Shown here piece by piece: positions 27,047 through 41,174 of a DNA stretch of 42,844 nt (position 1 is the stretch's first letter; every line of letters starts with the position of its first letter). Location of the stretch: UHGV virus genome UHGV-0158128, one strand, 5' to 3'. The position numbers and the translations under genes were made by a program. The DNA is from a virus. The notes below the pieces were generated by a model. That model did no database searches. It saw only the letters and a program-made list of their open reading frames with translations, and was not told the DNA's origin.

Positions 27047-28472
27047 AAAAGAGTTTATAGAGTGGTTGAAAACATCTGAGGGAAAACAATATAATGCGGA
27101 CGGATGGTATGGATTTCAATGCTTTGACTATGCCAATGCAGGTTGGCAAGTCTTATTTGGCTACAACTTAAAAGGTGTAGGTGCCAAAGACATCCCAAGT
27201 GCTAATGATTTTAACGGACTAGCTACTGTATACCAAAATACACCAGACTTCTTAGCGCAACCTGGCGACATGGTTGTATTCGGTAGTAATTATGGTGCAG
27301 GATACGGTCATGTTGCATGGGTAATTGAAGCAACTTTAGATTATATCATTGTATATGAGCAGAATTGGCTCGGCGGTGGCTGGACAGACGGTGTACAACA
27401 ACCTGGCTCTGGTTGGGAAAAAGTTACAAGACGCCAACACGCTTACGACTTCCCTATGTGGTTTATCCGTCCTAACTTCAAAAGCGAAACAGCTCCACGA
27501 TCAGTACAATCTCCTACGCAAGCATCTAAAAAGGAAACGGCTAAGCCACAACCTAAAGCGGTAGAACTTAAAATCATCAAAGATGTGGTTAAAGGTTATG
27601 ACCTACCTAAGCGTGGTAGTAACCCTAAGTTTATAGTTATTCACAACGACGCAGGAAGCAAAGGAGCAACAGCAGAAGCATATCGTAATGGATTAGTTAA
27701 CGCGCCATTATCGAGACTAGAGGCAGGTATTGCGCATAGTTACGTATCAGGTAACACAGTTTGGCAAGCCTTAGATGAATCTCAAGTAGGTTGGCATACA
27801 GCGAATCAAATAGGTAATAAATATGGTTACGGTATTGAAGTGTGTCAATCAATGGGAGCAGATAATGCGACGTTTTTAAAAAATGAACAGGCGACTTTCC
27901 AAGAATGTGCTAGATTGTTGAAAAAATGGGGATTACCAGCAAACCGTAACACAATCCGATTACACAACGAATTCACTTCAACATCATGCCCACACAGAAG
28001 CTCAGTATTGCACACTGGTTTTGATCCAGTAACTCGCGGTCTATTGCCAGAAGACAAGCGGTTGCAACTTAAAGACTACTTTATCAAGCAGATTAGGGCG
28101 TACATGGATGGTAAAATACCGGTTGCCACTGTCTCTAATGAGTCAAGCGCTTCAAGTAATACAGTTAAACCAGTTGCAAGTGCATGGAAACGTAATAAAT
28201 ATGGTACTTACTACATGGAAGAAAGTGCTAGATTCACAAACGGCAATCAACCAATCACAGTAAGAAAAGTGGGGCCATTCTTATCTTGTCCAGTGGGTTA
28301 TCAGTTCCAACCTGGTGGATATTGTGATTATACAGAAGTGATGTTACAAGATGGTCATGTTTGGGTAGGATATACATGGGAGGGGCAACGTTATTACTTG
28401 CCTATTAGAACATGGAATGGTTCTGCCCCACCTAATCAGATATTGGGTGACTTATGGGGAGAAATCAGTTAG
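27027..28472 (+). CDS. lytA: Endolysin (CHAP + amidase_2 + SH3b)
   Basis: 481 aa from ATG 27027, the size of phi11 LytA. CHAP Cys/His, [10 protein letters not shown] amidase motif and an SH3b-like C-terminus. Confidence 0.9.
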
Positions 28473-28495
28473 AATGACATAGTCATGTCTATTTG

Positions 28496-28526
28496 AGCAG
28501 GTGCGTTACATACCTGCTTTCTATTT
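28496..28526 (+). terminator. Intrinsic terminator after the endolysin
   Basis: agcaggt-gcgttacat-acctgct followed by ttctattt. Confidence 0.55.
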
Positions 28527-28601
28527 ACATTTAAAGATAAAATGTGCTATTATTTTACTAGAACTTTTTAACATTTCTCTCAAGATTTAAATGTAGATAA
28601 C

Positions 28602-28632
28602 AGGCAGGTACTACGGTACTTGCCTATTTTTT
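28602..28632 (+). terminator. Second, stronger intrinsic terminator
   Basis: aggcaggtac-tacg-gtacttgcct followed by attttttat. Confidence 0.65.
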
Positions 28633-28652
28633 ATGCAAATTTAAAAAAACAC

Positions 28653-28681
28653 TTGCTTAATAAACAATTGTTTAGTATAAT
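28653..28681 (+). promoter_or_regulatory. Sigma-A promoter TTGCTT-17-TATAAT with perfect 14-bp palindrome TAAACAATTGTTTA in the spacer
   Basis: -35 at 28653-28658, -10 at 28676-28681. Palindrome at 28661-28674. Confidence 0.55.
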
Positions 28682-28738
28682 TATATTTGTAGGTTAGTTG
28701 ATGACTTACAAATTATGTGTAAGGAGGTGAAAAGCCTC

Positions 28739-28867
28739 ATGCTAGACATAATAAAAACACTTCTAGAACATCAAGTATTGGCAGTACTGATAATTCCAGA
28801 AGTGTTAAAACAACTTAGAGAATGGCATCTCGGCTACCTAGACCGAAAGCCAAACAACAAAGATTAA
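28739..28867 (+). CDS. Small ORF (42 aa), amphipathic/hydrophobic
   Basis: AAGGAGGTGA RBS 8 nt upstream. MLDIIKTLLEHQVLAVLIIPEVLKQLREWHLGYLDRKPNNKD. Confidence 0.3.
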   Translation: MLDIIKTLLEHQVLAVLIIPEVLKQLREWHLGYLDRKPNNKD

Positions 28868-28937
28868 CATTATGCTTGGAGCCTGATGGCTCCTCCTTAC
28901 ACTTATATAATATAATATTATTTGGAGGTTTTCAATT

Positions 28938-29048
28938 ATGACAGAACAAATGTATTTAATATTGTTTTTATTAAGCCTACCATTGTTATTATTTATCGGG
29001 AGAAAAACACATTTTTATTGTTTAGATAAAAAGAATGGACGTAGATAA
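28938..29048 (+). CDS. Tiny TM peptide (36 aa), type-I-toxin-like architecture
   Basis: GGAGG RBS 9 nt upstream. MTEQMYLILFLLSLPLLLFIGRKTHFYCLDKKNGRR has a hydrophobic helix plus a basic tail. Its stop is 1 nt before the next ATG. Confidence 0.3.
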   Translation: MTEQMYLILFLLSLPLLLFIGRKTHFYCLDKKNGRR

Positions 29049-29049
29049 T

Positions 29050-29235
29050 ATGAGTGATTATAAATTAAAAATAATTGAATTGATCAAAAGTGATATAACA
29101 GGTTACCAAATTCACAAACAAACTGGCGTAGCGCAATATGTAATTTCACAATTAAGGCAAGGAAAGCGCGAAGTAGATAACTTAACTTTAAATACAACTG
29201 AAAAACTATACAGTTACGCACGACAAGTGTTATAA
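29050..29235 (+). CDS. Small HTH (XRE-like) DNA-binding protein, translationally coupled to the upstream peptide
   Basis: 61 aa from ATG 29050. HTH segment ITGYQIHKQTGVAQYVISQLRQGK. No independent RBS. Confidence 0.5.
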   Translation: MSDYKLKIIELIKSDITGYQIHKQTGVAQYVISQLRQGKREVDNLTLNTTEKLYSYARQVL

Positions 29236-29388
29236 TATAAATGTGAAATGGTCATTCTTGAAATGACTCGGTCGCTACTGGCACAGACCGTTTAAAGTGT
29301 CACCACAACATGAACTGAGAATTCATATGACGTTGCTGACGAGCGACAAAGCTCTGTGTTCCTGAATGGGAGTAGGTTTGTGTGGTGG

Positions 29389-29507
29389 TATAATTTAGTA
29401 ACAGCATAGACTGTCTATAGCAAAGTTGCCGAAGAGATTCTAAACGTATTTATAAATACGTGGCCCTTGCTAGATAACCGCATCTTAACTGATGCGGTTA
29501 TTTTTAT
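29389..29507 (+). ncRNA. Candidate small RNA: extended -10 promoter (TGgTATAAT) to intrinsic terminator, about 105 nt
   Basis: TATAAT at 29389-29394 preceded by TG. No ORF. Internal palindrome GCATAGAC-T-GTCTATAGC. Terminator ataaccgcatc-ttaact-gatgcggttat followed by ttttat at 29474-29507. Confidence 0.25.
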
Positions 29508-29585
29508 CCCCACACAACCAACAAAACCACACCACCTATTAATTTAGGAGTGTGGTTGTTTTAATATGTGAAGCTAAAATAACTA

Positions 29586-29803: not shown

Positions 29804-30850
29804 TTAATCAAATATGCTCATAGCTTGATGTTTTTTATCAGTATATAAATGAGAGTACGTTTGAATTGTTTCTGTAATGTTAGAGTGCCTCATTAATTCC
29901 ATTAATAAATACATATCTACACCATTATTAATTAAATAGCTTGCGTACGAGTGTCTTAAATGGTGTATTTTTAGATTCGGGAATACAGATTTAAAATGAT
30001 ACGAATAGGTAACGTATCTAATAGGTTCTAACCCCCCGAATATAAAATAGTTTTCGTCAAAATATTTATATCTTTTAGAAGATTCATTATACATGTTTTT
30101 AAGCATCTCTCTAATTAATTTTGGTACAGGTATTATCCCTTTAGAACTTTCTTTTTTTAGATTATATTCAATTTCTCTATTACTTAAATTGATTTTCTTA
30201 TTTACGTCAATTTCGCCTTTTATTTTATCGTAATCTTTCCACTGCAAAGCTAAAGCTTCTCCTATTCTAAGACCAGAATAAAATAACAGTCTAGTTAGCT
30301 GACGAGAAGTATCATTTGTGATTTGTTCTACTTTTTCATCAAATTCTTCACGAGTGATAAATTTAGCTTGTGGTTTTGTTCTGGGAATAGGAGTTACCGA
30401 TAATGTGGGGTCGTATAAGAGCTTGTAATGCTTTTTGGCGTAATTGATAACTGCTTTAAAACCTGCCCACACAGATCGTGCATAGTCAACAGAAAGACCT
30501 GCATCGTTTAACAAATAATTCCTGAAAGCAGTACATTGCGTAGTAGTGATTTTGCCAATAGGGATATTTCCGAACCTTTCTTTTATGTGAGTATTATATT
30601 CTGTAGTTCGCTTTTCTATTGAGCGTGCAGAAAGATTTTCATTTTTTAAACGATCAAAAAATATATATTCAAAGGGTTGATTGTCCGAGTATCCATATTT
30701 AACATTTTGTATAAATTCGCTTTCAGCTAGTTTGGCATCTTTCTTACGTTCAAACCCACGCTTCATTTTTCGTTTGTTATTACCGTATACATCTTTATAT
30801 CTAATGGAAAAATACCATTTACCTGTATTATCATCCTTATATACTGGCAT
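29804..30850 (-). CDS. int: Tyrosine integrase (phi11/80alpha type)
   Basis: 348 aa. Catalytic R...HxxR...Y motifs (HHLRHSYAS, TYSHLY). RBS GAGGAGGG. Confidence 0.9.
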   Translation of the reverse strand: MPVYKDDNTGKWYFSIRYKDVYGNNKRKMKRGFERKKDAKLAESEFIQNVKYGYSDNQPFEYIFFDRLKNENLSARSIEKRTTEYNTHIKERFGNIPIGKITTTQCTAFRNYLLNDAGLSVDYARSVWAGFKAVINYAKKHYKLLYDPTLSVTPIPRTKPQAKFITREEFDEKVEQITNDTSRQLTRLLFYSGLRIGEALALQWKDYDKIKGEIDVNKKINLSNREIEYNLKKESSKGIIPVPKLIREMLKNMYNESSKRYKYFDENYFIFGGLEPIRYVTYSYHFKSVFPNLKIHHLRHSYASYLINNGVDMYLLMELMRHSNITETIQTYSHLYTDKKHQAMSIFD

Positions 30851-30911
30851 TTTGCTTTTCCCTCCTCAAAATTGGCAAAAAATAATAAGGGTAGGCGGGC
30901 TACCCGTGATT

Positions 30912-30940
30912 TTAGTACTAGGTACTAAATGTGATATAAT
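30912..30940 (+). promoter_or_regulatory. xis promoter with operator palindrome TTAGTAC-TAG-GTACTAA and extended -10 TGaTATAAT
   Basis: Palindrome at 30912-30928 overlaps the -35 position. -10 at 30935-30940. Confidence 0.45.
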
Positions 30941-30962
30941 AAAATAAAAAGTAGGTGATGAA

Positions 30963-31142
30963 ATGTGTGTAAAATTTACTGACGCAGAAATAGCTTATAT
31001 AAAAGAATCAGTTGAAAATTATAGTAGTGAATTTGATATTTATGACGATGAACAAGAACTTAAATTAAAAATTTATGAACAAATTATGTTAAAAATCAAA
31101 TCTGAATACAAGGATACCTATTTATTCCGTCTTATTAATTGA
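30963..31142 (+). CDS. xis: Excisionase-like small protein, divergent from int
   Basis: 59 aa acidic ORF, read manually (below track cutoff). RBS GTAGGTGATG. Position divergent from int as in phi11. The Xis identity rests on synteny and memory only. Confidence 0.45.
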   Translation: MCVKFTDAEIAYIKESVENYSSEFDIYDDEQELKLKIYEQIMLKIKSEYKDTYLFRLIN

Positions 31143-32054
31143 TTTGGTATATTCTCTTAATATTTTTTCGTTTTCATCAACAATGTCTTTTAGTGTGTTT
31201 AAAAGAAAGTCACAATCACCTTTGGCTACTGCACCAGCTTGTGAATGGTTGATTATGTTTCTCATACTATACGCAATTTCTACCCGTTTTTTGGTTCTAT
31301 AATTTACTTTACCTTCTTTAGTTAATTCTCCTAATAATTTTGTGTACATAGTTGAATCGGTGTCTTTATGTTTGATTTTATTAACTTTTTTTAATTTGAT
31401 TAAAAACGTTTCTATAGCAACAGCAAAGGTTGCTGCAGCTGGCAAATACAATTCCCTTTTATAAGCTTGTAATCCTTGTTCTATTTGATAAGAAAAAGTT
31501 ATATCATCAACAATCTCTTTCATACTATTTAAATCTAAGTGGTTGAACGGTTGTATTTCATCATGTGCTTTGTTTATCAATCTTTCTTTCGACTTCGATA
31601 TCAATGTATTGTAATGATCGTTAGCTAATCTTTTGCCATAATTAAAAAATAAATCTAAATTGTTTTGTAATATTACGGTCCCGATATATTTTCCGTAGTA
31701 AATAGATGTGTAATAAATGTAATTATTAAAATCTAATAATCCGGATTGTTCTTCTACATACTTTTTAGAATCATATATGTATGAAGTAAAGTGTTTAGAC
31801 AAATATTTGATATCAATATTACGAAAATTATATATTTCTTTTAATTTACTGTCATTTGAGATAACGACGATGCAAGGTTCTTCAAAAAAAGATTGATTTA
31901 GATAAAATATCGAAATCTTGTAATCGTCTTTTCTCATGAATGGGAAAGCTTCTGGATTGCTACTAAACTGATAATTGTATCTGTTTTCAACTACATATTT
32001 GTAGCCTTCTAAAAATTTACGCAAGTATTCTTTTAAAGTTTTATTCTCTTCCAT
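31122..32054 (-). CDS. Accessory (moron) protein of unknown function on the cI strand; candidate superinfection-exclusion/defence gene
   Basis: 310 aa. Strong RBS GAGGAGGATGAGGG. Lies between xis and cI. No recognisable catalytic motif. Confidence 0.6.
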   Translation of the reverse strand: MEENKTLKEYLRKFLEGYKYVVENRYNYQFSSNPEAFPFMRKDDYKISIFYLNQSFFEEPCIVVISNDSKLKEIYNFRNIDIKYLSKHFTSYIYDSKKYVEEQSGLLDFNNYIYYTSIYYGKYIGTVILQNNLDLFFNYGKRLANDHYNTLISKSKERLINKAHDEIQPFNHLDLNSMKEIVDDITFSYQIEQGLQAYKRELYLPAAATFAVAIETFLIKLKKVNKIKHKDTDSTMYTKLLGELTKEGKVNYRTKKRVEIAYSMRNIINHSQAGAVAKGDCDFLLNTLKDIVDENEKILREYTKSINKTE

Positions 32055-32193
32055 CCCTCATCCTCCTCACGCCATATAGGCGTTTATTTCTTATATTCTT
32101 CTTCAACATACTTTTTTACTAAATATTCAAGAATAAGTTCGGTCATTAGATCGTTTTCTTCGTACTCTTTATGAAGTTACTTTATTCTTTGAA

Positions 32194-32361
32194 TTAATTT
32201 AACTTATCGCCATCTAATTTTTGTGAAATAAATTCCAAGTATTTACGCGCATTATGTGACGATAAATCTTTAGGTAACTCATAAGTGAATGGTTGATTAC
32301 CACTAGTTAAAACTTCATATACTATAGTTTCTTTTTTTATTTTGCAATTAGTTATTTTCAT
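32194..32361 (-). CDS. Small protein (55 aa) between cI and the 310-aa gene
   Basis: AAAAGGAG RBS 6 nt upstream of ATG. MKITNCKIKKETIVYEVLTSGNQPFTYELPKDLSSHNARKYLEFISQKLDGDKLN. Read manually. Confidence 0.35.
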   Translation of the reverse strand: MKITNCKIKKETIVYEVLTSGNQPFTYELPKDLSSHNARKYLEFISQKLDGDKLN

Positions 32362-32430
32362 TATAAACTCCTTTTAAACACTGATGAAATAGACGTCTTT
32401 TATATTAAAGTGCCATATAGGCGCTATTAA

Positions 32431-33150
32431 TCACAATACAACTTTGCCCATTACTTTAATATTACTAAACGAAGCGACTTTGATATCATCATACTTCGGA
32501 TTTAGAGATACCAAATTAATATAGTCTTCGCATATATCTACACGCTTGATAAGACTTACTCCATCTAATACAACGAGTGCAATTGTACCATCTTTAATAG
32601 AATCTTCTTTCTTAATAAAAGCGTATGTTCCTTGTTTTAACATAGGTTCCATTGAATCACCATTAACTAAAATACAAAAATCAGCATTTGATGGCGTTTC
32701 GTCTTCTTTAAAAAATACTTCTTCATGCAATATGTCATCATATAATTCTTCTCCTATGCCAGCACCAGTTGCACCACATGCAATATACGATACTAGTTTA
32801 GACTCTTTATATTCATCTATAGAAGTGACTTTATTCTGTTCATCTAATTGCTCATTTGCGTAGTTAAGTACGTTTTTTTGTCTTGGAGGCGTGAGTTTAC
32901 TGTATATGGAAGTGATGTCGTTTTTTTTATTATTTCTTGTAGGAAACAAATCATCGATACTGATATTTAAAATATGAGCAATTTCAAACAAATCATCTTG
33001 TTTAGGAGTTCTGTACCCTGTCTCATAATTTGAAATAGTAGCCTTTTTAGTGTTGAGTTTTTCTCCAAGTTGATCTTGAGTTAAGTTCAATTTGGTTCTA
33101 TAGTATCTGATTTTATTGCCTATAAATTTCGCTAATTCTTTTTTATCCAT
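32431..33150 (-). CDS. cI: CI repressor (HTH_XRE + S24 LexA-like peptidase)
   Basis: 239 aa. N-terminal HTH (LTQDQLGEKLNTKKATISNYETG). C-terminal GDSMEP Ser and K of the S24 autocleavage dyad. Confidence 0.9.
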   Translation of the reverse strand: MDKKELAKFIGNKIRYYRTKLNLTQDQLGEKLNTKKATISNYETGYRTPKQDDLFEIAHILNISIDDLFPTRNNKKNDITSIYSKLTPPRQKNVLNYANEQLDEQNKVTSIDEYKESKLVSYIACGATGAGIGEELYDDILHEEVFFKEDETPSNADFCILVNGDSMEPMLKQGTYAFIKKEDSIKDGTIALVVLDGVSLIKRVDICEDYINLVSLNPKYDDIKVASFSNIKVMGKVVL

Positions 33151-33175
33151 TTTCTTACCTCCTTAAATTTACCTA

Positions 33176-33265
33176 TAGTATAACCCAATTATTTTTGGTA
33201 TTCAACAAAAAAATACACGAAAAGCAAACTTTTATGTTGACTCAAGTACACGTATCGTGTATAGT
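33176..33265. promoter_or_regulatory. Divergent cI/cro promoter-operator region
   Basis: Minus strand: TTGAAT-17-TATACT (PRM-like). Plus strand: TTGACT-17-TATAGT at 33237-33265 (PR-like). Operator palindrome TACACGTATCGTGTA at 33247-33261 and a TACACG half-site at 33213. Confidence 0.7.
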
Positions 33266-33291
33266 TAGTTTTGTAAGCGGGAGGTGACAAC

Positions 33292-33510
33292 ATGCAATGG
33301 AATTTAATAAAGTTGAGAAAAGAAAGAAAGTGTACTCAAGAAGATTTAGCAAACCTCTTGAATATATCAACTGAAGGTTATCGTTTAAAGGAATTAGGAA
33401 AGCATCAATTTAAGAATGATGAGATGTTTATTATCGCTGATTTTTTTGACGAAAATATTGGAGATATTTTTTTACCCACAAAGTACACGAAACGCAAACA
33501 AACATCTTAA
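33292..33510 (+). CDS. cro: Cro-like repressor
   Basis: 72 aa HTH protein divergent from cI. RBS GGGAGGTGA. Confidence 0.8.
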   Translation: MQWNLIKLRKERKCTQEDLANLLNISTEGYRLKELGKHQFKNDEMFIIADFFDENIGDIFLPTKYTKRKQTS

Positions 33511-33525
33511 AAGGAGGAACGAACA

Positions 33526-34314
33526 ATGCAAGCATTACAAACATTTAATTTTAAAGAGCTACCAGTAAGAACAGTGGAAATTGAAAACGAACCTTATTTT
33601 GTAGGAAAAGATATTGCTGAAATTTTAGGATATGCAAGGGCAGACAATGCCATCAGAAATCATGTTGATAGCGAGGACAAGCTGACGCACCAATTTAGTG
33701 CATCAGGTCAAAACAGAAATATGATCATTATCAATGAATCAGGATTATACAGTTTAATCTTTGACGCTTCTAAACAAAGTAAAAACGAAAAAATCAGAGA
33801 AACCGCTCGAAAATTCAAACGATGGGTAACATCAGACGTCCTACCAGCCATTCGCAAACACGGTATCTACGCAACAGACAATGTAATTGAACAAACATTA
33901 AAAGATCCAGACTACATTATTACAGTGTTGACTGAGTATAAGAAAGAAAAAGAGCAAAACTTACTTTTACAACAAGAAATCGGAGAACTAAAACCCAAAG
34001 CAGACTATGTAGATGAAATCTTAAAGTCAACTGGCACATTAGCCACAACTCAAATCGCGGCAGACTACGGTATATCAGCACAAAAGTTAAACAAACTACT
34101 ACACGAAGCTAGACTACAACGAAAAGTAAATAAACAGTGGGTGCTTTACTCAGAACACATGGGCAAGAGTTACACAGATTCAGACACTATAACAATTGTG
34201 CGTTCTGATGGCAGAGAAGACACAGTTTTACAAACTAGATGGACGCAAAAAGGCAGATTGAAAATACATGAAATCATGACTGAATTCGGTTATGAAGCTA
34301 ACGTAACTGCTTAA
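33526..34314 (+). CDS. Antirepressor (Bro-N / KilA-C type)
   Basis: 262 aa. N-terminal Bro-N-like (FVGKDIAEILGY). Position after cro. Confidence 0.75.
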   Translation: MQALQTFNFKELPVRTVEIENEPYFVGKDIAEILGYARADNAIRNHVDSEDKLTHQFSASGQNRNMIIINESGLYSLIFDASKQSKNEKIRETARKFKRWVTSDVLPAIRKHGIYATDNVIEQTLKDPDYIITVLTEYKKEKEQNLLLQQEIGELKPKADYVDEILKSTGTLATTQIAADYGISAQKLNKLLHEARLQRKVNKQWVLYSEHMGKSYTDSDTITIVRSDGREDTVLQTRWTQKGRLKIHEIMTEFGYEANVTA

Positions 34315-34330
34315 CAGGAGGGCACAGCAA

Positions 34331-34525
34331 ATGCAAGCTCAAAACAAAAAAGTCATCTATTACTACTATGACGAAGAAGGTAATAGACGACTATTATCAA
34401 TTGGTAATTTAGATACCTATTTATTAGCAGATATCAAATCAAGATTTGGTTTATATAAAAAGGCAATCCCTGATTTAGATAATCTATACATTCAAATAGA
34501 TGGTATCGAATTTAAATTATATTAA
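34331..34525 (+). CDS. Hypothetical small protein
   Basis: 64 aa. RBS CAGGAGGG. Confidence 0.45.
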   Translation: MQAQNKKVIYYYYDEEGNRRLLSIGNLDTYLLADIKSRFGLYKKAIPDLDNLYIQIDGIEFKLY

Positions 34526-34555
34526 ATTTTTGGAAATGCAAAGGAGCATAAACAA

Positions 34556-34771
34556 ATGAACACGTTATACAAAACAACCCTCCTCATCACAATGGCAGTT
34601 GTGACTTGGAAGGTTTGGAAGATTGAACGAAATACGAGAAAGCCTGTAATCAATAGAAATGATTTTAGTAAAGAGTCTACAGCAGAAACGATTGAGCGAC
34701 ACAGTGATCCTGATTCAGGAATAAAACTACTTAAGGCATTTTCCGACTTCACTAAAGAGAACCTTACCTAA
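34556..34771 (+). CDS. Small membrane-anchored protein
   Basis: 71 aa. RBS AAAGGAG. N-terminal TM helix. Confidence 0.45.
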   Translation: MNTLYKTTLLITMAVVTWKVWKIERNTRKPVINRNDFSKESTAETIERHSDPDSGIKLLKAFSDFTKENLT

Positions 34772-34981
34772 TTCTAAGAAGATGAAGTTTCGTTGGTACT
34801 CAAGTGATTCATGTAAAGCAGTAGAGTAAATCTTTTCACTGGAAACACCTTCATCAGCATTCTCTGTAAGTTTTTGAAGGTTCTTTTTGAAGTGTTCACT
34901 TTGACCACCGTATAGTTCATCAGCTTCATTAACAATTTTATAGTAAAGCTGTTCATATTCACTATATGACATATTATCCAC
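34727..34981 (-). CDS. Minus-strand small acidic protein within the early region
   Basis: 84 aa. Very strong RBS AAAGGAGGTGG. Extended -10 (TGTGTATAAT) upstream on the minus strand. Convergently overlaps the 34556..34771 gene by 45 nt. Confidence 0.5.
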   Translation of the reverse strand: MDNMSYSEYEQLYYKIVNEADELYGGQSEHFKKNLQKLTENADEGVSSEKIYSTALHESLEYQRNFIFLELGKVLFSEVGKCLK

Positions 34982-35042
34982 CTCCTTTCACTAGGAGATA
35001 ACTAAATTATACACAACACAAAAATAAAAAGGAGGAATAGAT

Positions 35043-35264
35043 ATGATAAAAAATAGTTTGCAAGCTAAAGAACTTGCGGTAATTTTATCTGTTTCTAAAT
35101 CCAAAGCAGGACAAATAATAAGAGAACTGAATAAAGAGCTTGAAGATGAAGGATACATTGCGATACGAGGCAGAATACCAGTCCAATTAGCTAGAAAAAA
35201 ATTCCCTTATCACGACTTATCAGACGAGAGAATAATGGAGGAGTTGAAAAAAGAAAATGAGTAA
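35043..35264 (+). CDS. HTH DNA-binding protein (excisionase/MerR-like fold)
   Basis: 73 aa. RBS AAAAGGAGGAA. HTH segment LAVILSVSKSKAGQIIREL. Confidence 0.55.
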   Translation: MIKNSLQAKELAVILSVSKSKAGQIIRELNKELEDEGYIAIRGRIPVQLARKKFPYHDLSDERIMEELKKENE

Positions 35265-35418
35265 CATTTATAAAAGCTACCTATTAGCAGTACTGTGCTT
35301 CACGGTCTTAGCGATTGTACTCATGCCGTTTCTATACTTCACTACAGCATGGTCAATTGCGGGATTCGCAAGTATCGCAACATTCATATTCTATAAGGAA
35401 TACTTTTATGAAGAATAA
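35257..35418 (+). CDS. Small membrane peptide (53 aa)
   Basis: Overlapping start (aaaATGAgtaa). Two hydrophobic segments. Read manually. Confidence 0.3.
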   Translation: MSNIYKSYLLAVLCFTVLAIVLMPFLYFTTAWSIAGFASIATFIFYKEYFYEE

Positions 35419-35510
35419 AAAAACTGCTACTTGCGCCAACAAGTAACAGTGACAAACGATTAACAAAATTAATTCGTGTTCAATATAAAACGAAAAACGG
35501 AGGAAGTCAA

Positions 35511-35772
35511 GATGTATTACGAAATAGGCGAAATCATACGCAAAAATATTCATGTTAACGGATTCAATTTTAATCTATTCATTTTAAAAGGTCATATGGG
35601 CATATCAATACAAGTTAAAGATATGAACAACGTACCAATTAAACATGCTTATGTCGTAGATGAGAATGACTTAGATATGGCATCAGACTTATTTAACCAA
35701 GCAATAGATGAATGGATTGAAGAGAACACAGACGAACAGGACAGACTAATTAACTTAGTCATGAAATGGTAG
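35511..35772 (+). CDS. Hypothetical early protein
   Basis: RBS AACGGAGGAAG before ATG 35511. The track ORF starts at 35476. Confidence 0.45.
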
Positions 35773-35781
35773 GAGGTTGCT

Positions 35782-36003
35782 ATGAAGCAGACTGTAACTT
35801 ATATCATTCGTCATAGGGATATGCCAATTTATATAACTAACAAACCAACTGATAACAATTCAGATATTAGTTACTCCACAAATAGAAATAGAGCTAGGGA
35901 GTTTAACGGTATGGAAGAAGCGAGTATCAATATGGATTATCACAAAGCAATCAAGAAAACAGTGACAGAAACAATTGAGTACGAGGAGGTAGAACATGAC
36001 TGA
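35782..36003 (+). CDS. Hypothetical early protein
   Basis: 73 aa. RBS TAGGAGGTT. Confidence 0.45.
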   Translation: MKQTVTYIIRHRDMPIYITNKPTDNNSDISYSTNRNRAREFNGMEEASINMDYHKAIKKTVTETIEYEEVEHD

Positions 36004-36775
36004 ACAAACTAATCAAGATGTCGATATTTTAACGCAACTAGGTGTAAAAGACATCAGCAAACAAAATGCAAACAAGTTTTATAAATTTGCGATATACGGC
36101 AAGTTCGGTACTGGTAAAACTACGTTTTTAACAAAAGATAACAATGCCTTAGTACTAGATATAAATGAGGACGGAACAACGGTAACAGAAGATGGGGCAG
36201 TTGTGCAGATTAAGAATTATAAGCATTTTAGTGCAGTGATTAAAATGCTGCCTAAAATTATTGAACAACTAAGAGAAAACGGAAAACAAATTGATGTTGT
36301 AGTGATTGAAACAATCCAAAAGTTACGTGATATCACTATGGACGACATCATGGACGGTAAATCAAAGAAACCGACATTTAATGATTGGGGCGAGTGTGCT
36401 ACACGCATTGTAAGTATTTATCGTTATATTTCTAAATTACAAGAACATTATCAATTTCATCTTGCTATAAGCGGACACGAGGGCATTAACAAAGACAAAG
36501 ATGATGAGGGAAGTACTATCAATCCAACAATCACGATAGAGGCACAAGACCAAATAAAAAAAGCAGTCATCAGTCAATCTGACGTGTTAGCAAGAATGAC
36601 AATAGAAGAACATGAGCAAGACGGCGAAAAAACTTATCAATATGTACTTAACGCTGAACCATCAAACTTATTCGAGACAAAGATAAGACACTCAAGCAAC
36701 ATCAAAATTAACAACAAACGTTTCATTAATCCAAGTATTAACGATGTTGTACAAGCAATTAGAAATGGTAATTAA
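35996..36775 (+). CDS. Sak4-like RecA-fold ATPase (AAA_24)
   Basis: 259 aa. Walker A GKFGTGKTTF. Immediately precedes the SSB-like gene, as in Sak4-SSB modules. Confidence 0.6.
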   Translation: MTEQTNQDVDILTQLGVKDISKQNANKFYKFAIYGKFGTGKTTFLTKDNNALVLDINEDGTTVTEDGAVVQIKNYKHFSAVIKMLPKIIEQLRENGKQIDVVVIETIQKLRDITMDDIMDGKSKKPTFNDWGECATRIVSIYRYISKLQEHYQFHLAISGHEGINKDKDDEGSTINPTITIEAQDQIKKAVISQSDVLARMTIEEHEQDGEKTYQYVLNAEPSNLFETKIRHSSNIKINNKRFINPSINDVVQAIRNGN

Positions 36776-36804
36776 AAACTAATTAAAAGGACGGTATAAA
36801 AATT

Positions 36805-37359
36805 ATGAAAATCACTGGTAGAACACAATACATTCAAGAAACTAATCAAGAGGCATTCATGAAAGGTGGGGACTTTTTAGGAGCTGGAGAATTTACAGTA
36901 AAAGTTGCAAATGTCGAGTTTAACGACAGAGAAAACAGATACTTCACGATTGTTTTTGAAAACAACGAAGGTAAACAATACAAACACAACCAATTCGTCC
37001 CACCATTCCAACAAGATTATCAAGAAAAACAATATATCGAGTTACTTAGTAGATTAGGAATTAAATTGAACTTACCAGATTTAACTTTTGACACAGATCA
37101 ATTAATTAACAAAATCGGAACTATTGTACTTAAAAATAAATTTAACGAGGAACAAGGCAAGTATTTTGTAAGACTCTCATATGTAAAAGTTTGGAATAAA
37201 GACGATGAAGTAGTTAATAAACCAGAACCTAAAACTGATGAGATGAAACAAAAAGAACAGCAAGCAAATGGGAAACAGACGCCAATGAGTCAACAATCAA
37301 ACCCATTCGCTAATGCTAATGGTCCAATAGAAATTAATGATGATGATTTACCGTTCTAG
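36805..37359 (+). CDS. SSB-like protein with acidic C-terminal tail (DDDLPF)
   Basis: 184 aa. C-terminal NDDDLPF resembles the SSB protein-interaction tail. Confidence 0.5.
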   Translation: MKITGRTQYIQETNQEAFMKGGDFLGAGEFTVKVANVEFNDRENRYFTIVFENNEGKQYKHNQFVPPFQQDYQEKQYIELLSRLGIKLNLPDLTFDTDQLINKIGTIVLKNKFNEEQGKYFVRLSYVKVWNKDDEVVNKPEPKTDEMKQKEQQANGKQTPMSQQSNPFANANGPIEINDDDLPF

Positions 37360-37371
37360 GACGTGGTTTAA

Positions 37372-38037
37372 ATGCAATACATTACAAGATACCAGAAAGA
37401 CAATGACGGCACTTATTCCGTCGTTGCTACTGGTGTTGAACTTGAACAAAGTCACATTGACTTGCTAGAAAACGGATATCCACTAAAAGCAGAAGTAGAG
37501 GTTCCGGACAATAAAAAGTTATCTATAGAACAACGTAAAAAAATATTCGCAATGTGTAGAGATATAGAACTTCACTGGGGCGAACCAGTGGAATCAACTA
37601 GAAAATTATTACAAACAGAATTGGAAATTGAAAAAGGTTATGAGGAAATCAGTCTGCGTGACTGTTCAATGAAAGTCGCAAGGGAGTTAATAGAACTGAT
37701 TATAGCGTTTATGTTTCATCATCAAATACCTATGAGTGTAGAAACGAGTAAGTTGTTAAGTGAAGATAAAGCGTTATTATATTGGGCTACAATCAACCGC
37801 AATTGTGTAATATGCGGAAAGCCTCACGCTGACCTAGCACATTACGAAGCAGTAGGTAGAGGCATGAACAGAAACAAGATGAATCACTATGACAAACATG
37901 TATTAGCGTTATGTCGCGAACATCACAACGAGCAACATGCGATTGGCGTTAAGTCGTTTGATGATAAATATCACTTGCATGACTCGTGGATAAAAGTTGA
38001 TGAGAGGCTCAATAAAATGTTGAAAGGAGGAGAATAA
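37372..38037 (+). CDS. Conserved phage protein with CxxC...H/N-rich Zn-finger/HNH-like motif (DUF968-type)
   Basis: 221 aa. CVICGKPH...HYEAV...NHYDKHVLALCREHHNEQH. Confidence 0.4.
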   Translation: MQYITRYQKDNDGTYSVVATGVELEQSHIDLLENGYPLKAEVEVPDNKKLSIEQRKKIFAMCRDIELHWGEPVESTRKLLQTELEIEKGYEEISLRDCSMKVARELIELIIAFMFHHQIPMSVETSKLLSEDKALLYWATINRNCVICGKPHADLAHYEAVGRGMNRNKMNHYDKHVLALCREHHNEQHAIGVKSFDDKYHLHDSWIKVDERLNKMLKGGE

Positions 38038-38816
38038 TGGTTAAATCGATATTTTTACAAGATGGAGAAGAAATTTTAGTTGATGATGAAGATTACGAGA
38101 GAGTTAATCAGCATACTTGGCATAAAGCTTTTAAAGATAATTACAGAATGATTGTGAATAGTGATAAAAAGCATTTACCTGATTTTATTCTAAAAAAAAG
38201 TTTCCAAAAAATAAAAAACAATGATTTCACAAGAAAAAATCTAACAACTGAAGGTAATAAAACAAGATGGAGCAAAGCGAAGTGTAACAATTCATCTAAA
38301 TATAAAGGCGTTTCATGGGATAAAAAAAATAATAATTGGTATGCATGTATAGCTGTTGATAAAAAAACCAAAAACTTAGGTCACTTTGTAAATGAAGATG
38401 AAGCAGCAAAAGCTTACAACAATGCAGTTAATGAATATTGGGGTGGTGTTGGTTACCTTAATATAATTGGAGAAGATAATAGGCTGAAAAAAAGAAACTA
38501 TAAAACAAACATAAAGCAATTGAAGAGGGGAACTGATAAAAACAATTTAAGAGGAATAAACAAAATAAAACATAGATATTATTCAAAAATATTTTATTCT
38601 GGCAACTATATAGCGTTAGGCGGATATGACGATTTAAACAAAGCGAGATTAGTTTACAACAAATGTTCGTCATACCTGCATGGATCTGACGCGATCCTTA
38701 ACGACGTACCTATGACAGATGAACTTAAAGAATTCATATCTAACTGGGAAGTACCGGACAAAATAAAAGCGCTGAAAGGAGAAGACAATGGGAGAAGTAT
38801 CGTGGATAAAACTTAA
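38037..38816 (+). CDS. Free-standing HNH_3 / AP2-domain homing-endonuclease-like protein
   Basis: 259 aa. N-terminal LVDDEDYERVNQHTWH (HNH_3-type). Two AP2-like segments (YKGVSWDKKNNNWYACI; LRGINKIKHRYYSKIFY). Extremely A-rich with A7-A8 runs. Confidence 0.6.
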   Translation: MVKSIFLQDGEEILVDDEDYERVNQHTWHKAFKDNYRMIVNSDKKHLPDFILKKSFQKIKNNDFTRKNLTTEGNKTRWSKAKCNNSSKYKGVSWDKKNNNWYACIAVDKKTKNLGHFVNEDEAAKAYNNAVNEYWGGVGYLNIIGEDNRLKKRNYKTNIKQLKRGTDKNNLRGINKIKHRYYSKIFYSGNYIALGGYDDLNKARLVYNKCSSYLHGSDAILNDVPMTDELKEFISNWEVPDKIKALKGEDNGRSIVDKT

Positions 38817-39591
38817 AGTTGGCATGTTTGATGACAGCAAAATCAAATATATCGAAGCTTTACCCGAAAGAGATACGATCATAACCATTTGGGTTAAGTT
38901 GCTAACTTTATCAGGAAAGTACAACGAACAAGGTTACATTATGTTATCTGAAAACTTGCCGTATAACGAAGAAATGTTAGCAAATGAGTTTAGCCGACCT
39001 ATTAACTCAATAAGGTTAGCAATACAAACTTTTGAGACGTTGGGCATGATTGAAAAAGTTAATGGTGTCATAAAAGTGACAAACTGGGAAAAACACCAAA
39101 ACATTGAAGGACTCGAGAAAATCAGGGCTCAGAACAGGTTGAGGAAACAAAAGCAACGAGAAAACAACAGAAAATTGCTAAATGGTCACGTGACGTCACG
39201 TGACAGTCACGCAACAGAAGAAGATAAAGAATTAGATAAAGAATTAGAAAGAGATAAAGAAAAAGATATAGATAAGAACTTAAGTTCAAATAATAGCGCA
39301 ACTGACGTTACGCATGAGCAATTTGAGGAATGGTGGAAACTTTACAACAAGAAAAAAGATAAGAAGATGTCTTTCACTAAATTCAAATCATGCGTAAAGA
39401 AACATACTTTTGAGCAAATCATGCAAGGTACTCGAGAGTATTTAAAAACTATTACAGACAAACAATATCAAAAGTACCCTAAAACGTTTTTAACTAACGA
39501 AAGCTATATGAATGATTATAGCGAAGAGATTAAAGAAACTGGTATAGATCAATTGGAACGTATGAAGTACGACGAAAGTTATTGGGACTAG
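38788..39591 (+). CDS. Replisome organizer (phage_rep_org_N-type initiator)
   Basis: 267 aa. Conserved N-terminus WIKLKVGMFDDSKIKYIEALPE. RBS AAAGGAGAAG. Confidence 0.7.
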   Translation: MGEVSWIKLKVGMFDDSKIKYIEALPERDTIITIWVKLLTLSGKYNEQGYIMLSENLPYNEEMLANEFSRPINSIRLAIQTFETLGMIEKVNGVIKVTNWEKHQNIEGLEKIRAQNRLRKQKQRENNRKLLNGHVTSRDSHATEEDKELDKELERDKEKDIDKNLSSNNSATDVTHEQFEEWWKLYNKKKDKKMSFTKFKSCVKKHTFEQIMQGTREYLKTITDKQYQKYPKTFLTNESYMNDYSEEIKETGIDQLERMKYDESYWD

Positions 39592-39600
39592 GAGGATGTT

Positions 39601-40374
39601 ATGAAACCGTTATTCAACGAAAAAATAAACGAAAGTTTAAAAAAATATCAACCAATCGAAGTAATACTAAGACAGAATTGCGATAAATGCGGGCATCAAT
39701 ATGACTTATATAAGTTTGAAAATGGATATGAATACAAAGACGGTTGCGAATGTGAAATTCAAAGATTGGCTTACGAAGAATACAAAAGGAATAAACAAAA
39801 GAAACTTGATTATATTTTCAATCAATCAAATGTTAATCCGTCATTAAGAGATGCAACGGTTAACAACTATAAGCCACAAAATGAAAAACAAGTAAAAGCT
39901 AAACAAACAGCAATAGAGTATGTACAGGGTTTCTCTACAAAAGAACCAAAATCATTAATATTGCAAGGTTCATATGGAACTGGTAAAAGCCACCTAGCAT
40001 ACGCTATCGCAAAAGCAGTCAAATCTAAAGGGCATACAGTTGCTTTTATGCACATACCAATGTTGATGGATCGTATCAAAGCGACATACAACAAAAATGC
40101 AGTTGAAACTACAGACGAGCTAGTCAGATTGCTAAGTGATATTGATTTACTTGTACTAGATGATATGGGTGTAGAAAACACAGAGCACACTTTAAATAAA
40201 CTTTTCAGCATTGTTGATAACAGAGTAGGTAAAAACAACATCTTTACAACTAACTTTAGTGATAAAGAACTAAATCAAAATATGAACTGGCAACGTATCA
40301 ATTCAAGAATGAAACACAATGCGAGAAAAGTAAGAGTAATCGGAGACGATTTCAGGGAGCGAGATGCATGGTAA
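39601..40374 (+). CDS. DnaC/IstB-like helicase loader ATPase
   Basis: 257 aa. Walker A GSYGTGKSHLA, Walker B LLVLDDMG. Confidence 0.8.
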   Translation: MKPLFNEKINESLKKYQPIEVILRQNCDKCGHQYDLYKFENGYEYKDGCECEIQRLAYEEYKRNKQKKLDYIFNQSNVNPSLRDATVNNYKPQNEKQVKAKQTAIEYVQGFSTKEPKSLILQGSYGTGKSHLAYAIAKAVKSKGHTVAFMHIPMLMDRIKATYNKNAVETTDELVRLLSDIDLLVLDDMGVENTEHTLNKLFSIVDNRVGKNNIFTTNFSDKELNQNMNWQRINSRMKHNARKVRVIGDDFRERDAW

Positions 40375-40526
40375 CCAAAGAATTTTTAAAAACTAAACTT
40401 GAGTGTTCAGATATTTATGCTCAGAAACTCATAGACGAGGCACAGGGCGATGAAAATAGGTTGTACGACCTATTTATCCAAAAACTTGCAGAACGTCACA
40501 CACGCCCCGCTGTCGTCGAATATTAA
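40368..40526 (+). CDS. 52-aa peptide, Sri-like (candidate DnaI-binding replication inhibitor / SaPI1 derepressor)
   Basis: ATG overlaps the loader stop (gcATGGTAA). 52 aa MVTKEFLKTKLECSDIYAQKLIDEAQGDENRLYDLFIQKLAERHTRPAVVEY. Size and position match Sri. Identity is from memory. Confidence 0.4.
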   Translation: MVTKEFLKTKLECSDIYAQKLIDEAQGDENRLYDLFIQKLAERHTRPAVVEY

Positions 40527-40538
40527 GGAGTGTTAAAA

Positions 40539-40760
40539 ATGCCGAAAGAAAAATATTACTTATACCGAGAAGATGGCACGGAAGATATTAAGGTCATCAA
40601 ACATGAAGATAACGAGAATGAAGTTTATTCGCTCACAGGAGCCCATTTCAGCGACGAAAAGAAAATTATGACTGATAGTGACCTAAAACGATTCAAAGGC
40701 GCTCACGGGCTTCTATATGAGCAAGAACTAGGATTACAAGCAACGATATTTGATATTTAG
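40539..40760 (+). CDS. Hypothetical protein
   Basis: RBS TAAGGAGTG before ATG 40539. Confidence 0.45.
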   Translation: MPKEKYYLYREDGTEDIKVIKHEDNENEVYSLTGAHFSDEKKIMTDSDLKRFKGAHGLLYEQELGLQATIFDI

Positions 40761-40769
40761 AGGTGCACG

Positions 40770-41174
40770 ATGAGTAAATACAACGCTAAGAAAGTTGAGT
40801 ATAAAGGGATTGTATTTGACAGCAAAGTAGAATGTGAATATTACCAATATTTAGAAAGTAATATGAATGGCACTAACTATGATCGTATCGAACTACAACC
40901 GAAATTTGAATTATTACCAAAACTAGATAAACAACGAAAGATTGAATATATTGCAGACTTCGCGTTATATCTCGATGACAAACTGATTGAAGTTATCGAC
41001 ATTAAAGGTATGCCAACCGAAGTAGCAAAACTTAAAGCTAAGATGTTCAGACACAAATACAGAAACATAAAACTCAATTGGATATGTAAAGCGCCTAAGT
41101 ATACAGGTAAAACATGGATTACGTACGAGGAATTAATTAAAGCAAGACGAGAACGCAAAAGAGAAATGAAGTGA
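40770..41174 (+). CDS. DUF1064-like (PD-(D/E)xK-fold) phage protein
   Basis: 134 aa. IADF...EVIDIKG resembles a D-x(n)-E-x-K nuclease motif. Confidence 0.45.
   Translation: MSKYNAKKVEYKGIVFDSKVECEYYQYLESNMNGTNYDRIELQPKFELLPKLDKQRKIEYIADFALYLDDKLIEVIDIKGMPTEVAKLKAKMFRHKYRNIKLNWICKAPKYTGKTWITYEELIKARRERKREMK

Follow-up and report, generated by a model that had tools for sequence, protein, structure and literature searches.

The 42.8 kb genome UHGV-0158128, the whole of which is referred to here as the window, is a complete phi11-like Dubowvirus of Staphylococcus aureus, and behind its lysin gene it carries a small cassette of two hydrophobic micro-open reading frames (micro-ORFs) and a helix-turn-helix (HTH) gene. 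Sequence comparison indicates that this cassette is probably an accessory operon of the anti-CRISPR-associated (Aca) type, negatively autoregulated and with the architecture of an acr-aca operon although holding no recognisable anti-CRISPR (Acr), in which the HTH protein would repress its own promoter at a palindrome. Any specific function of the cargo is much less likely than Aca-type autorepression at the palindrome. Most sequence features of the locus are already on record as transcripts and hypothetical genes. What is new here is the placement of the HTH protein in the Aca11/AcrIIA13-15 N-terminal domain (NTD) family, the recurrence of the layout in distant phages, and the identity of the 3' half of the small RNA (sRNA) S808 as a DUF3800-I RNA.

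phi11 and 80alpha are the standard temperate phages of S. aureus genetics, yet for the part of their genomes considered here annotation goes no further than hypothetical proteins, an XRE regulator, and sRNAs of unknown function. The cassette region is 99-100% identical to that of phages 8490, vB_SauS_I73, and phi11, and 98.6% identical to that of 80alpha. In the phi11 prophage of NCTC8325/HG001 the locus has been mapped in detail, and the window agrees with the sequences given for it in the promoter table of Mäder 2016. The three genes are there SAOUHSC_02018, SAOUHSC_02017, and SAOUHSC_02016, homologues of the 42-amino-acid micro-ORF1 (ORF42), the 36-amino-acid micro-ORF2 (ORF36), and the HTH gene, respectively. 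They form the transcription unit SAOUHSC_02018-02017-02016-S808 behind the SigA promoter U1019. In the publications two of these genes count as hypothetical proteins and one as XRE, and S808 is taken as a single sRNA of unknown function. These data support the cassette as an independently promoted, moron-like accessory unit that is expressed from the prophage. Should none of the readings below hold, the locus would be an ordinary, already mapped moron region.

The HTH protein

The initial annotation described the product of the third gene as an XRE-type HTH protein. The HTH fold stands, but the resemblance to XRE proteins is one of fold only: no Cro/C1-type HTH model of Pfam is reached at threshold, and the best match, HTH_26, scores 13.6 bits (cut-off 22, E 0.082). 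A more specific family is indicated by several comparisons. A profile search of PDB with 20 homologues recovers the AcrIIA15 NTD (E 2.9e-16) and Aca11 (E 2.1e-10), and BLASTP aligns the protein with Aca11 at 46% identity (E 2e-14). Its AlphaFold2 (AF2) model has a pLDDT of 96. The top Foldseek matches of this model are 8jfr, the AcrIIA15-NTD on palindromic DNA (TM 0.86, root-mean-square deviation 0.7 Å), and 9lx2, Aca11 (TM 0.77-0.83), with generic XRE proteins ranking far lower at a TM of ~0.6 and E > 0.1. Sequence and model together place the protein in the Aca11/AcrIIA13-15 NTD family, for which 'XRE-type' is too generic a description. This placement of the phi11 HTH protein was not found in the literature searched.

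The residues through which the protein would contact DNA are conserved. In Aca11, mutagenesis traced the contacts with DNA to Y18, K22, Q28, S32, K38, and R39, of which Q28 and R39 are essential (PMC12658196). The equivalents in the window are Y19, K23, Q29, S33, K39, and R40, all invariant in the 20 homologues. Placement in the Aca11/AcrIIA13-15 family offers a directly testable mechanism, in which a dimer would sit on ATAAACA-NN-TGTTTA and Q29 and R40 would be critical.

The likeness to Aca11, which comes from a Streptococcus prophage (PDB 9lx2; PMC12658196, PMC12282945), extends to the operon. Both are stand-alone HTH proteins of ~61-63 amino acids with a four-helix fold, both are encoded at the 3' end of a short operon, and both operons have a near-consensus promoter whose 17-nucleotide (nt) spacer contains an inverted repeat (IR). 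The loci differ in cargo, as the gene upstream of aca11 encodes the validated Acr AcrIIA25.1 whereas two hydrophobic micro-ORFs precede the HTH gene here. They also differ in host genus and in the arms of the IR, 11 bp for Aca11 against 6-7 bp in the window, and no antisense RNA has been described at the Aca11 locus.

The closest solved relative is the N-terminal HTH of the Staphylococcus proteins AcrIIA13, AcrIIA14, and AcrIIA15 (Watters 2020, PMC7104187; 8jfo/8jfr, PMC10901769). The AcrIIA15-type HTH binds IRs in its own promoter and represses it. One of its two repeats, IR2, lies between the -35 and -10 hexamers (PMC10901769), and the IR of the window promoter is likewise placed; only one clear IR is present here. 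A further difference is that AcrIIA13-15 carry a C-terminal Cas9-inhibiting domain, whereas the window protein ends after the HTH domain. An association with a validated Acr is found only in relatives, such as phage PMBT9, and the window cassette contains neither an Acr domain nor an Acr homologue. The HTH protein is thus an Aca-family member by homology, which does not by itself make its operon an acr operon.

Translation from a second, in-frame ATG at 29035 would yield a longer protein of 66 amino acids. This upstream start may be the real one, as some homologues have Leu at the M1 position. A second S. aureus subfamily of the HTH protein, 77% identical and with 280 member sequences, occurs in a different context and is represented by locus L085 (P0109). 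In L085 (2463-2573 and 3001-3186) a micro-ORF2-like peptide (MKMTIKVRKTNKKEKIEF...) lies ~430 nt upstream of the HTH gene.

The promoter and its palindromic repeat

All sequence features listed in the initial annotation are present in the window, with a shift of 1 nt for two ORF starts, that of the 42-amino-acid ORF among them. The near-consensus sigma-A promoter that it had noted is backed experimentally by U1019 on the phi11 allele. Its spacer contains the perfect 14-bp palindrome TAAACAATTGTTTA, which lies within the slightly longer repeat ATAAACA-AT-TGTTTA, the predicted operator of an Aca11-like HTH dimer. The proposal that the palindrome serves as operator and the HTH protein as autoregulator is strongly supported by homology to the autorepressors Aca11 and AcrIIA15-NTD.

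The conservation of the repeat follows what such a site would require. The half-sites ATAAACA and TGT do not differ among 54 distinct alleles, and within the repeat only the centre (39% non-consensus) and position 28672 vary. Invariant half-sites around a variable centre are the pattern expected of a dimer site. The -10 hexamer is unchanged in 52 of the 54 alleles, and the two most variable stretches overall are the repeat centre and the 3' half of the -35 hexamer. AAACANNTGTTT occurs once only in the window.

The published operator of Aca11 provides the nearest parallel. It has the sequence AGTATATAACA-AA-TGTTATATACT and sits between the hexamers of a TTGACA-17-TATACT promoter that Aca11 represses (PMC12658196). 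The window repeat takes the same position in its promoter and has the core AACA-NN-TGTT in common with it. Repeats of unrelated sequence also occur at this position in homologous loci. phiSP38-1 (L086) has the arrangement TTGACT, IR TACGTTAG-AAAA-CTAACGTA, TATAAT. In vB_G30_01 (L088) two repeats, IR1 and IR2, of the form TTGCCA-NN-TGGCAA flank the -35 hexamer of a TTGACT-TATAAT promoter, and PhiSepi-HH1 (L090) has a 24-bp perfect palindrome over the spacer and the -10 hexamer. Repeats of unrelated sequence at the same promoter position are independent support for an operator role.

Several observations weigh against autorepression at this repeat by an Aca11-like protein. Perfect 14-bp palindromes are not rare, the window containing eight against 4.2 +/- 2.1 in Markov simulations, and the weight of this one is in its placement within a promoter and not in its occurrence. 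The palindrome is perfect in only ~35 of 81 loci, and its right half-site drifts (TGTGTA, TGTGCG) with no compensatory change on the left. The adjoining 5' untranslated region (UTR) is as highly conserved, so that conservation of the spacer is not specific to it. The second HTH subfamily, in L085, has no AAACA-NN-TGTTT repeat nearby. Lastly, the base-contacting K31 of AcrIIA15 is Gln in the window protein, meaning that specificity cannot be transferred from AcrIIA15.

An imperfect repeat over the -35 hexamer, AAAAACA-CT-TGCTTA, was considered as a counterpart of IR1. It was rejected, as it exists in the window allele only and the different -35 hexamers of other alleles alter its right half.

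Instead of its own operon, the HTH protein may mainly control host genes or other phage genes as a lysogenic-conversion regulator, with the palindrome in its own promoter incidental. The operon is expressed in the lysogen, the neighbouring phage sRNAs Srn_9342, SprY, and SprX act on host targets, and Aca11 controls a second promoter (PMC12658196). The spacer of the S808 promoter also contains a weak ACA-AG-TGTT element. Against this, the full motif occurs once in the phage and its core ACANNTGTT is not enriched in the window, with 19 matches where 12.5 +/- 3.7 are expected. All characterised relatives autorepress their own operon, and the IRs of different sequence at the same promoter position in homologous loci argue for local autoregulation. 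A regulator directed mainly at other genes is hence very unlikely, and Aca-type autorepression is the preferred reading of the promoter.

The element in the S808 promoter spacer, gACA-AG-TGTTa at 29222-29233 (+), is a partial copy of the operator core. By analogy with the second promoter controlled by Aca11, the HTH protein might act at the S808 promoter too. As the core motif is not enriched, the element was kept as a lead only and not as a second operator. Separately, the start of the operon mRNA (28682-28712, +) can form a 10-bp stem, AUUUGUAGGU ... ACUUACAAAU, which is almost invariant in the 54 alleles and may be a 5' stabiliser hairpin.

The micro-ORFs and antisense RNA S809

Substitution patterns were examined in loci related to the cassette, 80 of them from IMG/VR, using the eight distinct alleles that are only 74-86% identical in DNA. 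The HTH ORF has a synonymous divergence (pS) of 0.48-0.70 against a non-synonymous divergence (pN) of 0.06-0.10, with no such signal in the other frames. For ORF36 pS is 0.28-0.40 and pN 0.06-0.09, and the off-frames display the opposite pattern. ORF42 offers few sites, with a pS of 0.14-0.18, a pN of 0.03-0.04, and off-frames without signal; its unusually low synonymous divergence is compatible with an added constraint imposed by S809, the antisense RNA that overlaps it. Because pS exceeds pN in frame and not in other frames, all three ORFs are under purifying selection as proteins.

These patterns bear on whether the small ORFs are translated at all. An RNA-only transcript could be envisaged by analogy with SprY of phi12, first described as the 5' UTR of a 60-amino-acid ORF. 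Consistent with this, the nucleotide sequence of the ORF42 region is very highly conserved and overlaps S809, and the ORFs are unannotated in the GenBank and RefSeq records of phi11. However, the in-frame synonymous excess extends to all three ORFs and to the analogous micro-ORFs of other lineages, the Shine-Dalgarno (SD) sequences are strong and properly spaced, and the ORFs are open in nearly all of the 81 loci. A transcript acting only as RNA is accordingly highly improbable.

For the three cassette ORFs, searches of Pfam, NCBIfam, PHROGs, and PADLOC yielded nothing beyond PHROGs without an assigned function and the sub-threshold HTH_26 match. Two points concerning the peptides count against the Aca-type reading of the operon: neither ORF42 nor ORF36 has a counterpart among the Acr, toxin, or defence families of Pfam, NCBIfam, PADLOC, or PDB, and both are far smaller and more hydrophobic than known Acrs. 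Among natural variants, a stop codon interrupts ORF42 in L019 and the HTH gene in L084, and a 1-nt frameshift fuses ORF36 to the HTH ORF in P0028. Some prophages therefore tolerate losing an individual component.

The opposite strand encodes the cis-antisense sRNA S809, driven by U1017/U1018 of Mäder 2016. S809 is made up of three stem-loops, at its 5' end, in its middle, and at its 3' end, the last followed by a U-run inside the ORF42 coding region. Its predicted fold of -48.9 kcal/mol compares with -32.6 +/- 3.8 for shuffled sequences (z = -4.3), none of 200 shuffles being as stable. S809 overlaps ORF42 and not ORF36, the peptide that the initial annotation had singled out as toxin-like. Near-consensus antisense promoters occupy the same relative position in four of six other loci, matching at 11/12 positions in L087 and L090, 10/12 in L091, and 9/12 in L086. 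Between the two micro-ORFs is a GC-rich hairpin, an equivalent of which follows micro-ORF1 in all seven loci compared. A CUCC-rich stretch 3' of this hairpin can pair with the SD of micro-ORF2; the resulting SD-masking fold of the leader is no more stable than shuffles (z = -0.9).

This arrangement recalls the type I toxin-antitoxin (TA) systems of Gram-positive prophages, such as SprA1/SprA1AS, SprG/SprF, TxpA/RatA, and BsrG/SR4. These also combine small hydrophobic peptides with a cis-antisense sRNA, a prophage location, and possible SD masking. They differ in that there is no sequence relation, that the window peptides share an operon with a protein repressor, and that S809 overlaps micro-ORF1 only. 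In a TA-like reading either ORF42 or ORF36 would be a membrane toxin, its mRNA would be neutralised by S809, and the HTH protein would add transcriptional control. Each peptide has one hydrophobic helix and a charged tail and so resembles Fst/PepA1-type toxins in build, a likeness of composition only. The strongest argument is S809 itself, which is published, folds stably, and overlaps ORF42; the antisense promoter recurs at its relative position in distant loci, and the CCUCC stretch could mask the SD of micro-ORF2. In phiNM2 the place of the cassette is taken by srn_9343/9344, a proposed type I TA pair (Bronsard 2017). On the other side, none of the toxin families in Pfam, NCBIfam, PADLOC, or PDB is matched, ORF36 has no S809 overlap, and SD masking scores no better than shuffled sequence. 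Alleles with a stop in the HTH gene (L084) or in ORF42 (L019) indicate that loss is tolerated. Taken together a type I TA-like function is rather unlikely; it concerns the cargo only and would be compatible with Aca-type regulation of the operon.

The same layout in distant staphylococcal phages

Six distant phages, StauST398-3, phiSP38-1, PMBT9, PhiSepi-HH1, IME1318_01, and vB_SauS_phi2, have the same succession of elements after the lysin gene: a promoter, a micro-ORF1 of 30-46 amino acids, a GC-rich hairpin, a micro-ORF2 of 29-44 amino acids with one hydrophobic helix, and an abutting Aca-like HTH gene. The close coupling of a hydrophobic micro-ORF to the HTH gene is hence found in distant relatives too. 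A seventh locus, in vB_G30_01 (L088), differs in having an 80-amino-acid ORF before a 140-amino-acid HTH fusion. The micro-ORFs of the distant lineages also have pS above pN, with no family match in NCBIfam or PHROGs.

PMBT9 encodes its HTH as a fusion with an AcrIIA13 domain (7eni, E 2e-29), and such loci are therefore genuine anti-CRISPR loci. This AcrIIA13 homologue too is a post-lysin gene, preceded by a micro-ORF pair laid out as in the window. A conserved front end, consisting of two membrane-type micro-peptides, would appear to be common to staphylococcal anti-CRISPR loci and may have been overlooked when Acrs were sought through guilt by association. A limit to this parallel, and a further point against the Aca-type reading of the operon, is that the window micro-ORFs are not sequence-homologous to those of AcrIIA13-type loci. 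In the window peptides the hydrophobic helix comes first and the charged tail last, and the peptides of distant loci have the reverse order. With no sequence relation and a reversed order, the module is therefore conserved in layout only.

A rival interpretation is that the operon is a genuine anti-CRISPR or other anti-defence operon, with ORF42 and/or ORF36 as inhibitors and the HTH protein as their Aca. The family of the HTH protein, the acr-aca layout of promoter and IR, the micro-ORF pair ahead of the AcrIIA13 homologue in PMBT9, and HTH relatives in Streptococcus thermophilus phages, e.g. D4276, would all agree with it. However, CRISPR-Cas is missing from most S. aureus strains, and engineered CRISPR systems have no difficulty in targeting phages of the phi11 type. 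The peptides, at 36-42 amino acids and hydrophobic, are also unlike known soluble Acrs, and in the validated relatives Acr activity resides in a C-terminal domain fused to the HTH, which is absent here. An inhibitory role of this kind is unlikely for the window peptides.

A broader proposal is that micro-peptides, hairpin, antisense RNA, and Aca-family repressor form a conserved post-lysin module of many staphylococcal temperate phages. The AcrIIA13-15 Acrs would then be add-ons fused to the repressor of an older module, and the micro-peptides would be the real, dose-limited effectors, acting at the membrane. We regard this as less likely than not. A description of such a module of micro-peptides and Aca repressor was not found in the literature searched. 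If it is true that the peptides act in exclusion, anti-defence, or toxicity, the range of cargo under Aca control would be wider than anti-CRISPRs.

Proposed regulation of the operon

Under Aca-type autorepression the cassette would operate as follows. The sigma-A promoter is reported for phi11 to fire in the lysogen, so that micro-ORF1, the hairpin, micro-ORF2, and the HTH gene are transcribed. By homology, the HTH protein would dimerise and bind ATAAACA-NN-TGTTTA between the -35 and -10 hexamers. The bound dimer would block RNA polymerase and hold a strong promoter at a low set-point after an initial burst. Synthesis of the HTH protein would be tied to translation of micro-ORF2, because the stop and start codons are 1 nt apart or overlap.

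S809, running from the start region of micro-ORF2 back through the hairpin into micro-ORF1, may add a second layer of control over the operon. The micro-peptides themselves would, at best guess, be small membrane effectors (exclusion, anti-defence, or toxin-like) whose dose is tightly limited. S808/Srn_9345 is a separate downstream gene with its own promoter.

The sRNA S808 and its DUF3800-I RNA

The initial annotation saw the end of the cassette as a structured 3' region with a strong terminator. Both are present; the region is, though, no mere 3' UTR but the sRNA S808/Srn_9345, driven by its own SigA promoter, U1016 (Mäder 2016). The 101-nt sequence printed for U1016 is identical to window 29180-29280, and the published segment measures 254-255 nt. 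The locus, the promoters, the 254-nt size, and the position after SAOUHSC_02016 are those of S808/Srn_9345 in the srn_9342-9346 cluster (Mäder 2016; Bronsard 2017; Liu 2018). SprX and SprY were rejected as identities for the region, as these belong to phi12/phi13 and the published coordinates and sequences are those of S808.

The RNA has a fold z of -2.8 and two parts of differing distribution. Its 5' domain (29240-29390) is found behind the HTH gene in all S. aureus loci whose flank is long enough. The 3' half is a DUF3800-I RNA including its Rho-independent terminator, which, unlike the first 150 nt, is present only in some phages. Diverged copies occur in L012 and L070 (53.5 and 52.1 bits). 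In a scan of 20 related loci the motif is missed altogether at the Rfam gathering setting, through its speed filters, and recovered at a permissive setting.

In prophage locus L070 the two parts stand apart. There a DUF3800 gene (PF12686, E 4e-15) lies between them and ends 14 nt before the DUF3800-I RNA. L070 carries ~0.9 kb more than the window at the junction, the DUF3800 gene included, and GTGGT stands at both edges of the segment missing from the window. As the DUF3800 gene separates the parts in L070 and GTGGT marks both edges, the phi11-type S808 is a chimera, in which an orphan DUF3800-I RNA follows immediately on the conserved 150-nt 5' domain; a deletion here or an insertion in L070 could account for the difference. 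No PF12686 protein is found among the window ORFs scanned (the lysogeny, replication, and other early-gene ORFs of 29804-41174, the three cassette ORFs, and the dUTPase at 18-527; the morphogenesis and several smaller ORFs were unscanned). Among 50,697 phage records none matches the L070 DUF3800 gene and 29 carry the DUF3800-I RNA alone.

The DUF3800-I motif (Weinberg 2017, RF02969) has a multi-stem core followed by a Rho-independent terminator, as here, and in L070 the DUF3800 gene adjoins it. The RNA of the window differs in being an orphan, as it is in all 29 sequenced phage records, where no match to the L070 DUF3800 gene stands alongside. Other transcripts also end in it, S808 in this phage and, in StauST398-3, the 3' region of the lysin gene. 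For the DUF3800 protein, an RNase H-like character and links to retrons and CRISPR loci have been described. In the literature searched, DUF3800-I is mentioned only by Weinberg 2017 and the Rfam 15 paper. S808 links an experimentally verified S. aureus sRNA to this orphan RNA class, and in phi11 it would be a natural copy of the DUF3800-I RNA that is expressed, comes without the protein, and resides in a tractable host.

The junction at ~29390 is a cargo hot-spot in related prophages (L035, L037, L039, and L070 from 2841 onwards). The cargo includes the DUF3800 gene, a DUF3467 and membrane protein pair (phage 55), a 185-amino-acid PBECR4-type nuclease, and a trio of 349, 121, and 227 amino acids whose last member has an Mrr-type nuclease domain. 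In StauST398-3 (L087, 1297-1401) the DUF3800-I RNA and terminator come immediately behind the lysin gene and ahead of the Aca-like operon. The DUF3800-I RNA thus has the behaviour of a unit that can move and brings its own terminator.

The Rfam model named 'S808', RF02897, does not match 29240-29506 but 28037-28291 (+) inside the lysin gene, with 314 bits. The S808 of Mäder 2016, as identified by its printed promoter sequence, lies ~1.2 kb downstream of this match, and RF02897 seems to have been built from the wrong stretch.

Position of the cassette and neighbouring features

The lysin gene ends at 28472, and the integrase gene occupies 29804-30850 on the minus strand. The end of the phi11 GenBank record is equivalent to ~29710 of the window, and the cassette therefore lies in the lysin-to-attP accessory region. 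The initial annotation had placed an accessory cassette there; its own promoter and its expression from the prophage agree with this, and comparison with relatives bears out its variability. Bronsard 2017 described the same locus in phiNM2 of Newman, with srn_9343/9344 in place of the cassette, as against 'a three-CDS insertion' in NCTC8325. Coordinates of all features are collected in Table 1.

Table 1. Features of the post-lysin cassette and its flanks in the window (positions of UHGV-0158128; aa, amino acids; RBS, ribosome-binding site)
Feature	Position	Strand	Basis or remark
sRNA S810/Srn_9342	28472..28632	+	3'-UTR-type sRNA of the lysin gene; upstream cassette boundary; terminator scan, Mäder S5 Table coordinates, Liu 2018
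Sigma-A promoter TTGCTT-17-TATAAT	-35 28653-28658, -10 28676-28681	+	Sequence; Mäder U1019; expected start ~28688
Inverted repeat ATAAACA-AT-TGTTTA	28660..28674	.	Predicted operator of Aca11-like HTH dimer
Perfect 14-bp palindrome TAAACAATTGTTTA	28661-28674	.	Inside the 17-nt promoter spacer
Strong RBS AGGAGGTG of micro-ORF1	28722-28729	+	Sequence
Micro-ORF1, 42 aa	28739..28867	+	SAOUHSC_02018 homologue, phrog_4761; hydrophobic N-terminal half, charged tail
cis-Antisense sRNA S809, ~113-150 nt	28750..28900	-	Mäder U1017/U1018, segment new_1924231_1924343
GC-rich hairpin GGAGCC-tgat-GGCTCC	28878..28893	+	Between micro-ORF1 and micro-ORF2
S809 promoter TTGAAA-17-TATTAT	28907..28935	-	Over the micro-ORF2 SD/start region; sequence printed for U1017/U1018
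SD GGAGG of micro-ORF2	28923-28927	+	Sequence
Micro-ORF2, 36 aa	28938..29048	+	SAOUHSC_02017 homologue, phrog_35522; N-terminal transmembrane-type helix, basic tail
HTH protein, 61 aa	29050..29235	+	SAOUHSC_02016 homologue; ATG 1 nt past the ORF36 stop; predicted dimeric autorepressor
S808 promoter TATACA-18-TGtTATAAT, extended -10	29207..29236	+	Overlaps last codons and stop of the HTH gene; Mäder U1016
sRNA S808/Srn_9345	29240..29506	+	254 nt on northern blot in HG001; ends at terminator
DUF3800-I RNA (RF02969) with Rho-independent terminator	29394..29509	+	cmscan 54.2 bits (gathering 44.2), E 1e-6; 3' half of S808
Terminal hairpin AACCGCATC-ttaact-GATGCGGTT and T-run	~29474-29506	+	Rho-independent terminator of the DUF3800-I RNA

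Upstream of the cassette the initial annotation had noted two terminators closing the late operon. Terminator-like hairpins are indeed present at 28495-28519 and 28602-28625, and they double as the alternative 3' ends of Srn_9342/S810, which is known as two isoforms (Bronsard 2017; 2024 preprint). S810 is driven by the SigB promoter U1020 within the 3' end of the lysin gene (Mäder 2016), and both S808 (= srn_9345) and S810 are on the bona fide sRNA list of Liu 2018. Binding of RNAIII and an action on heme metabolism have been reported for S810/Srn_9342. The stretch with its two terminator hairpins resembles the SprD model weakly, at a sub-threshold 23 bits (gathering score 100).

Beyond the integrase, a 310-amino-acid ORF (31122-32054, -) lies between the excisionase and cI-like repressor genes, in the position of phi11_03. 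It belongs to phrog_2039 and has no match in Pfam or PADLOC. In the related locus L010 (3671-3814), a copy of the sRNA sau-5971 (RF02397, 117 bits) is found ~1 kb downstream of the cassette.

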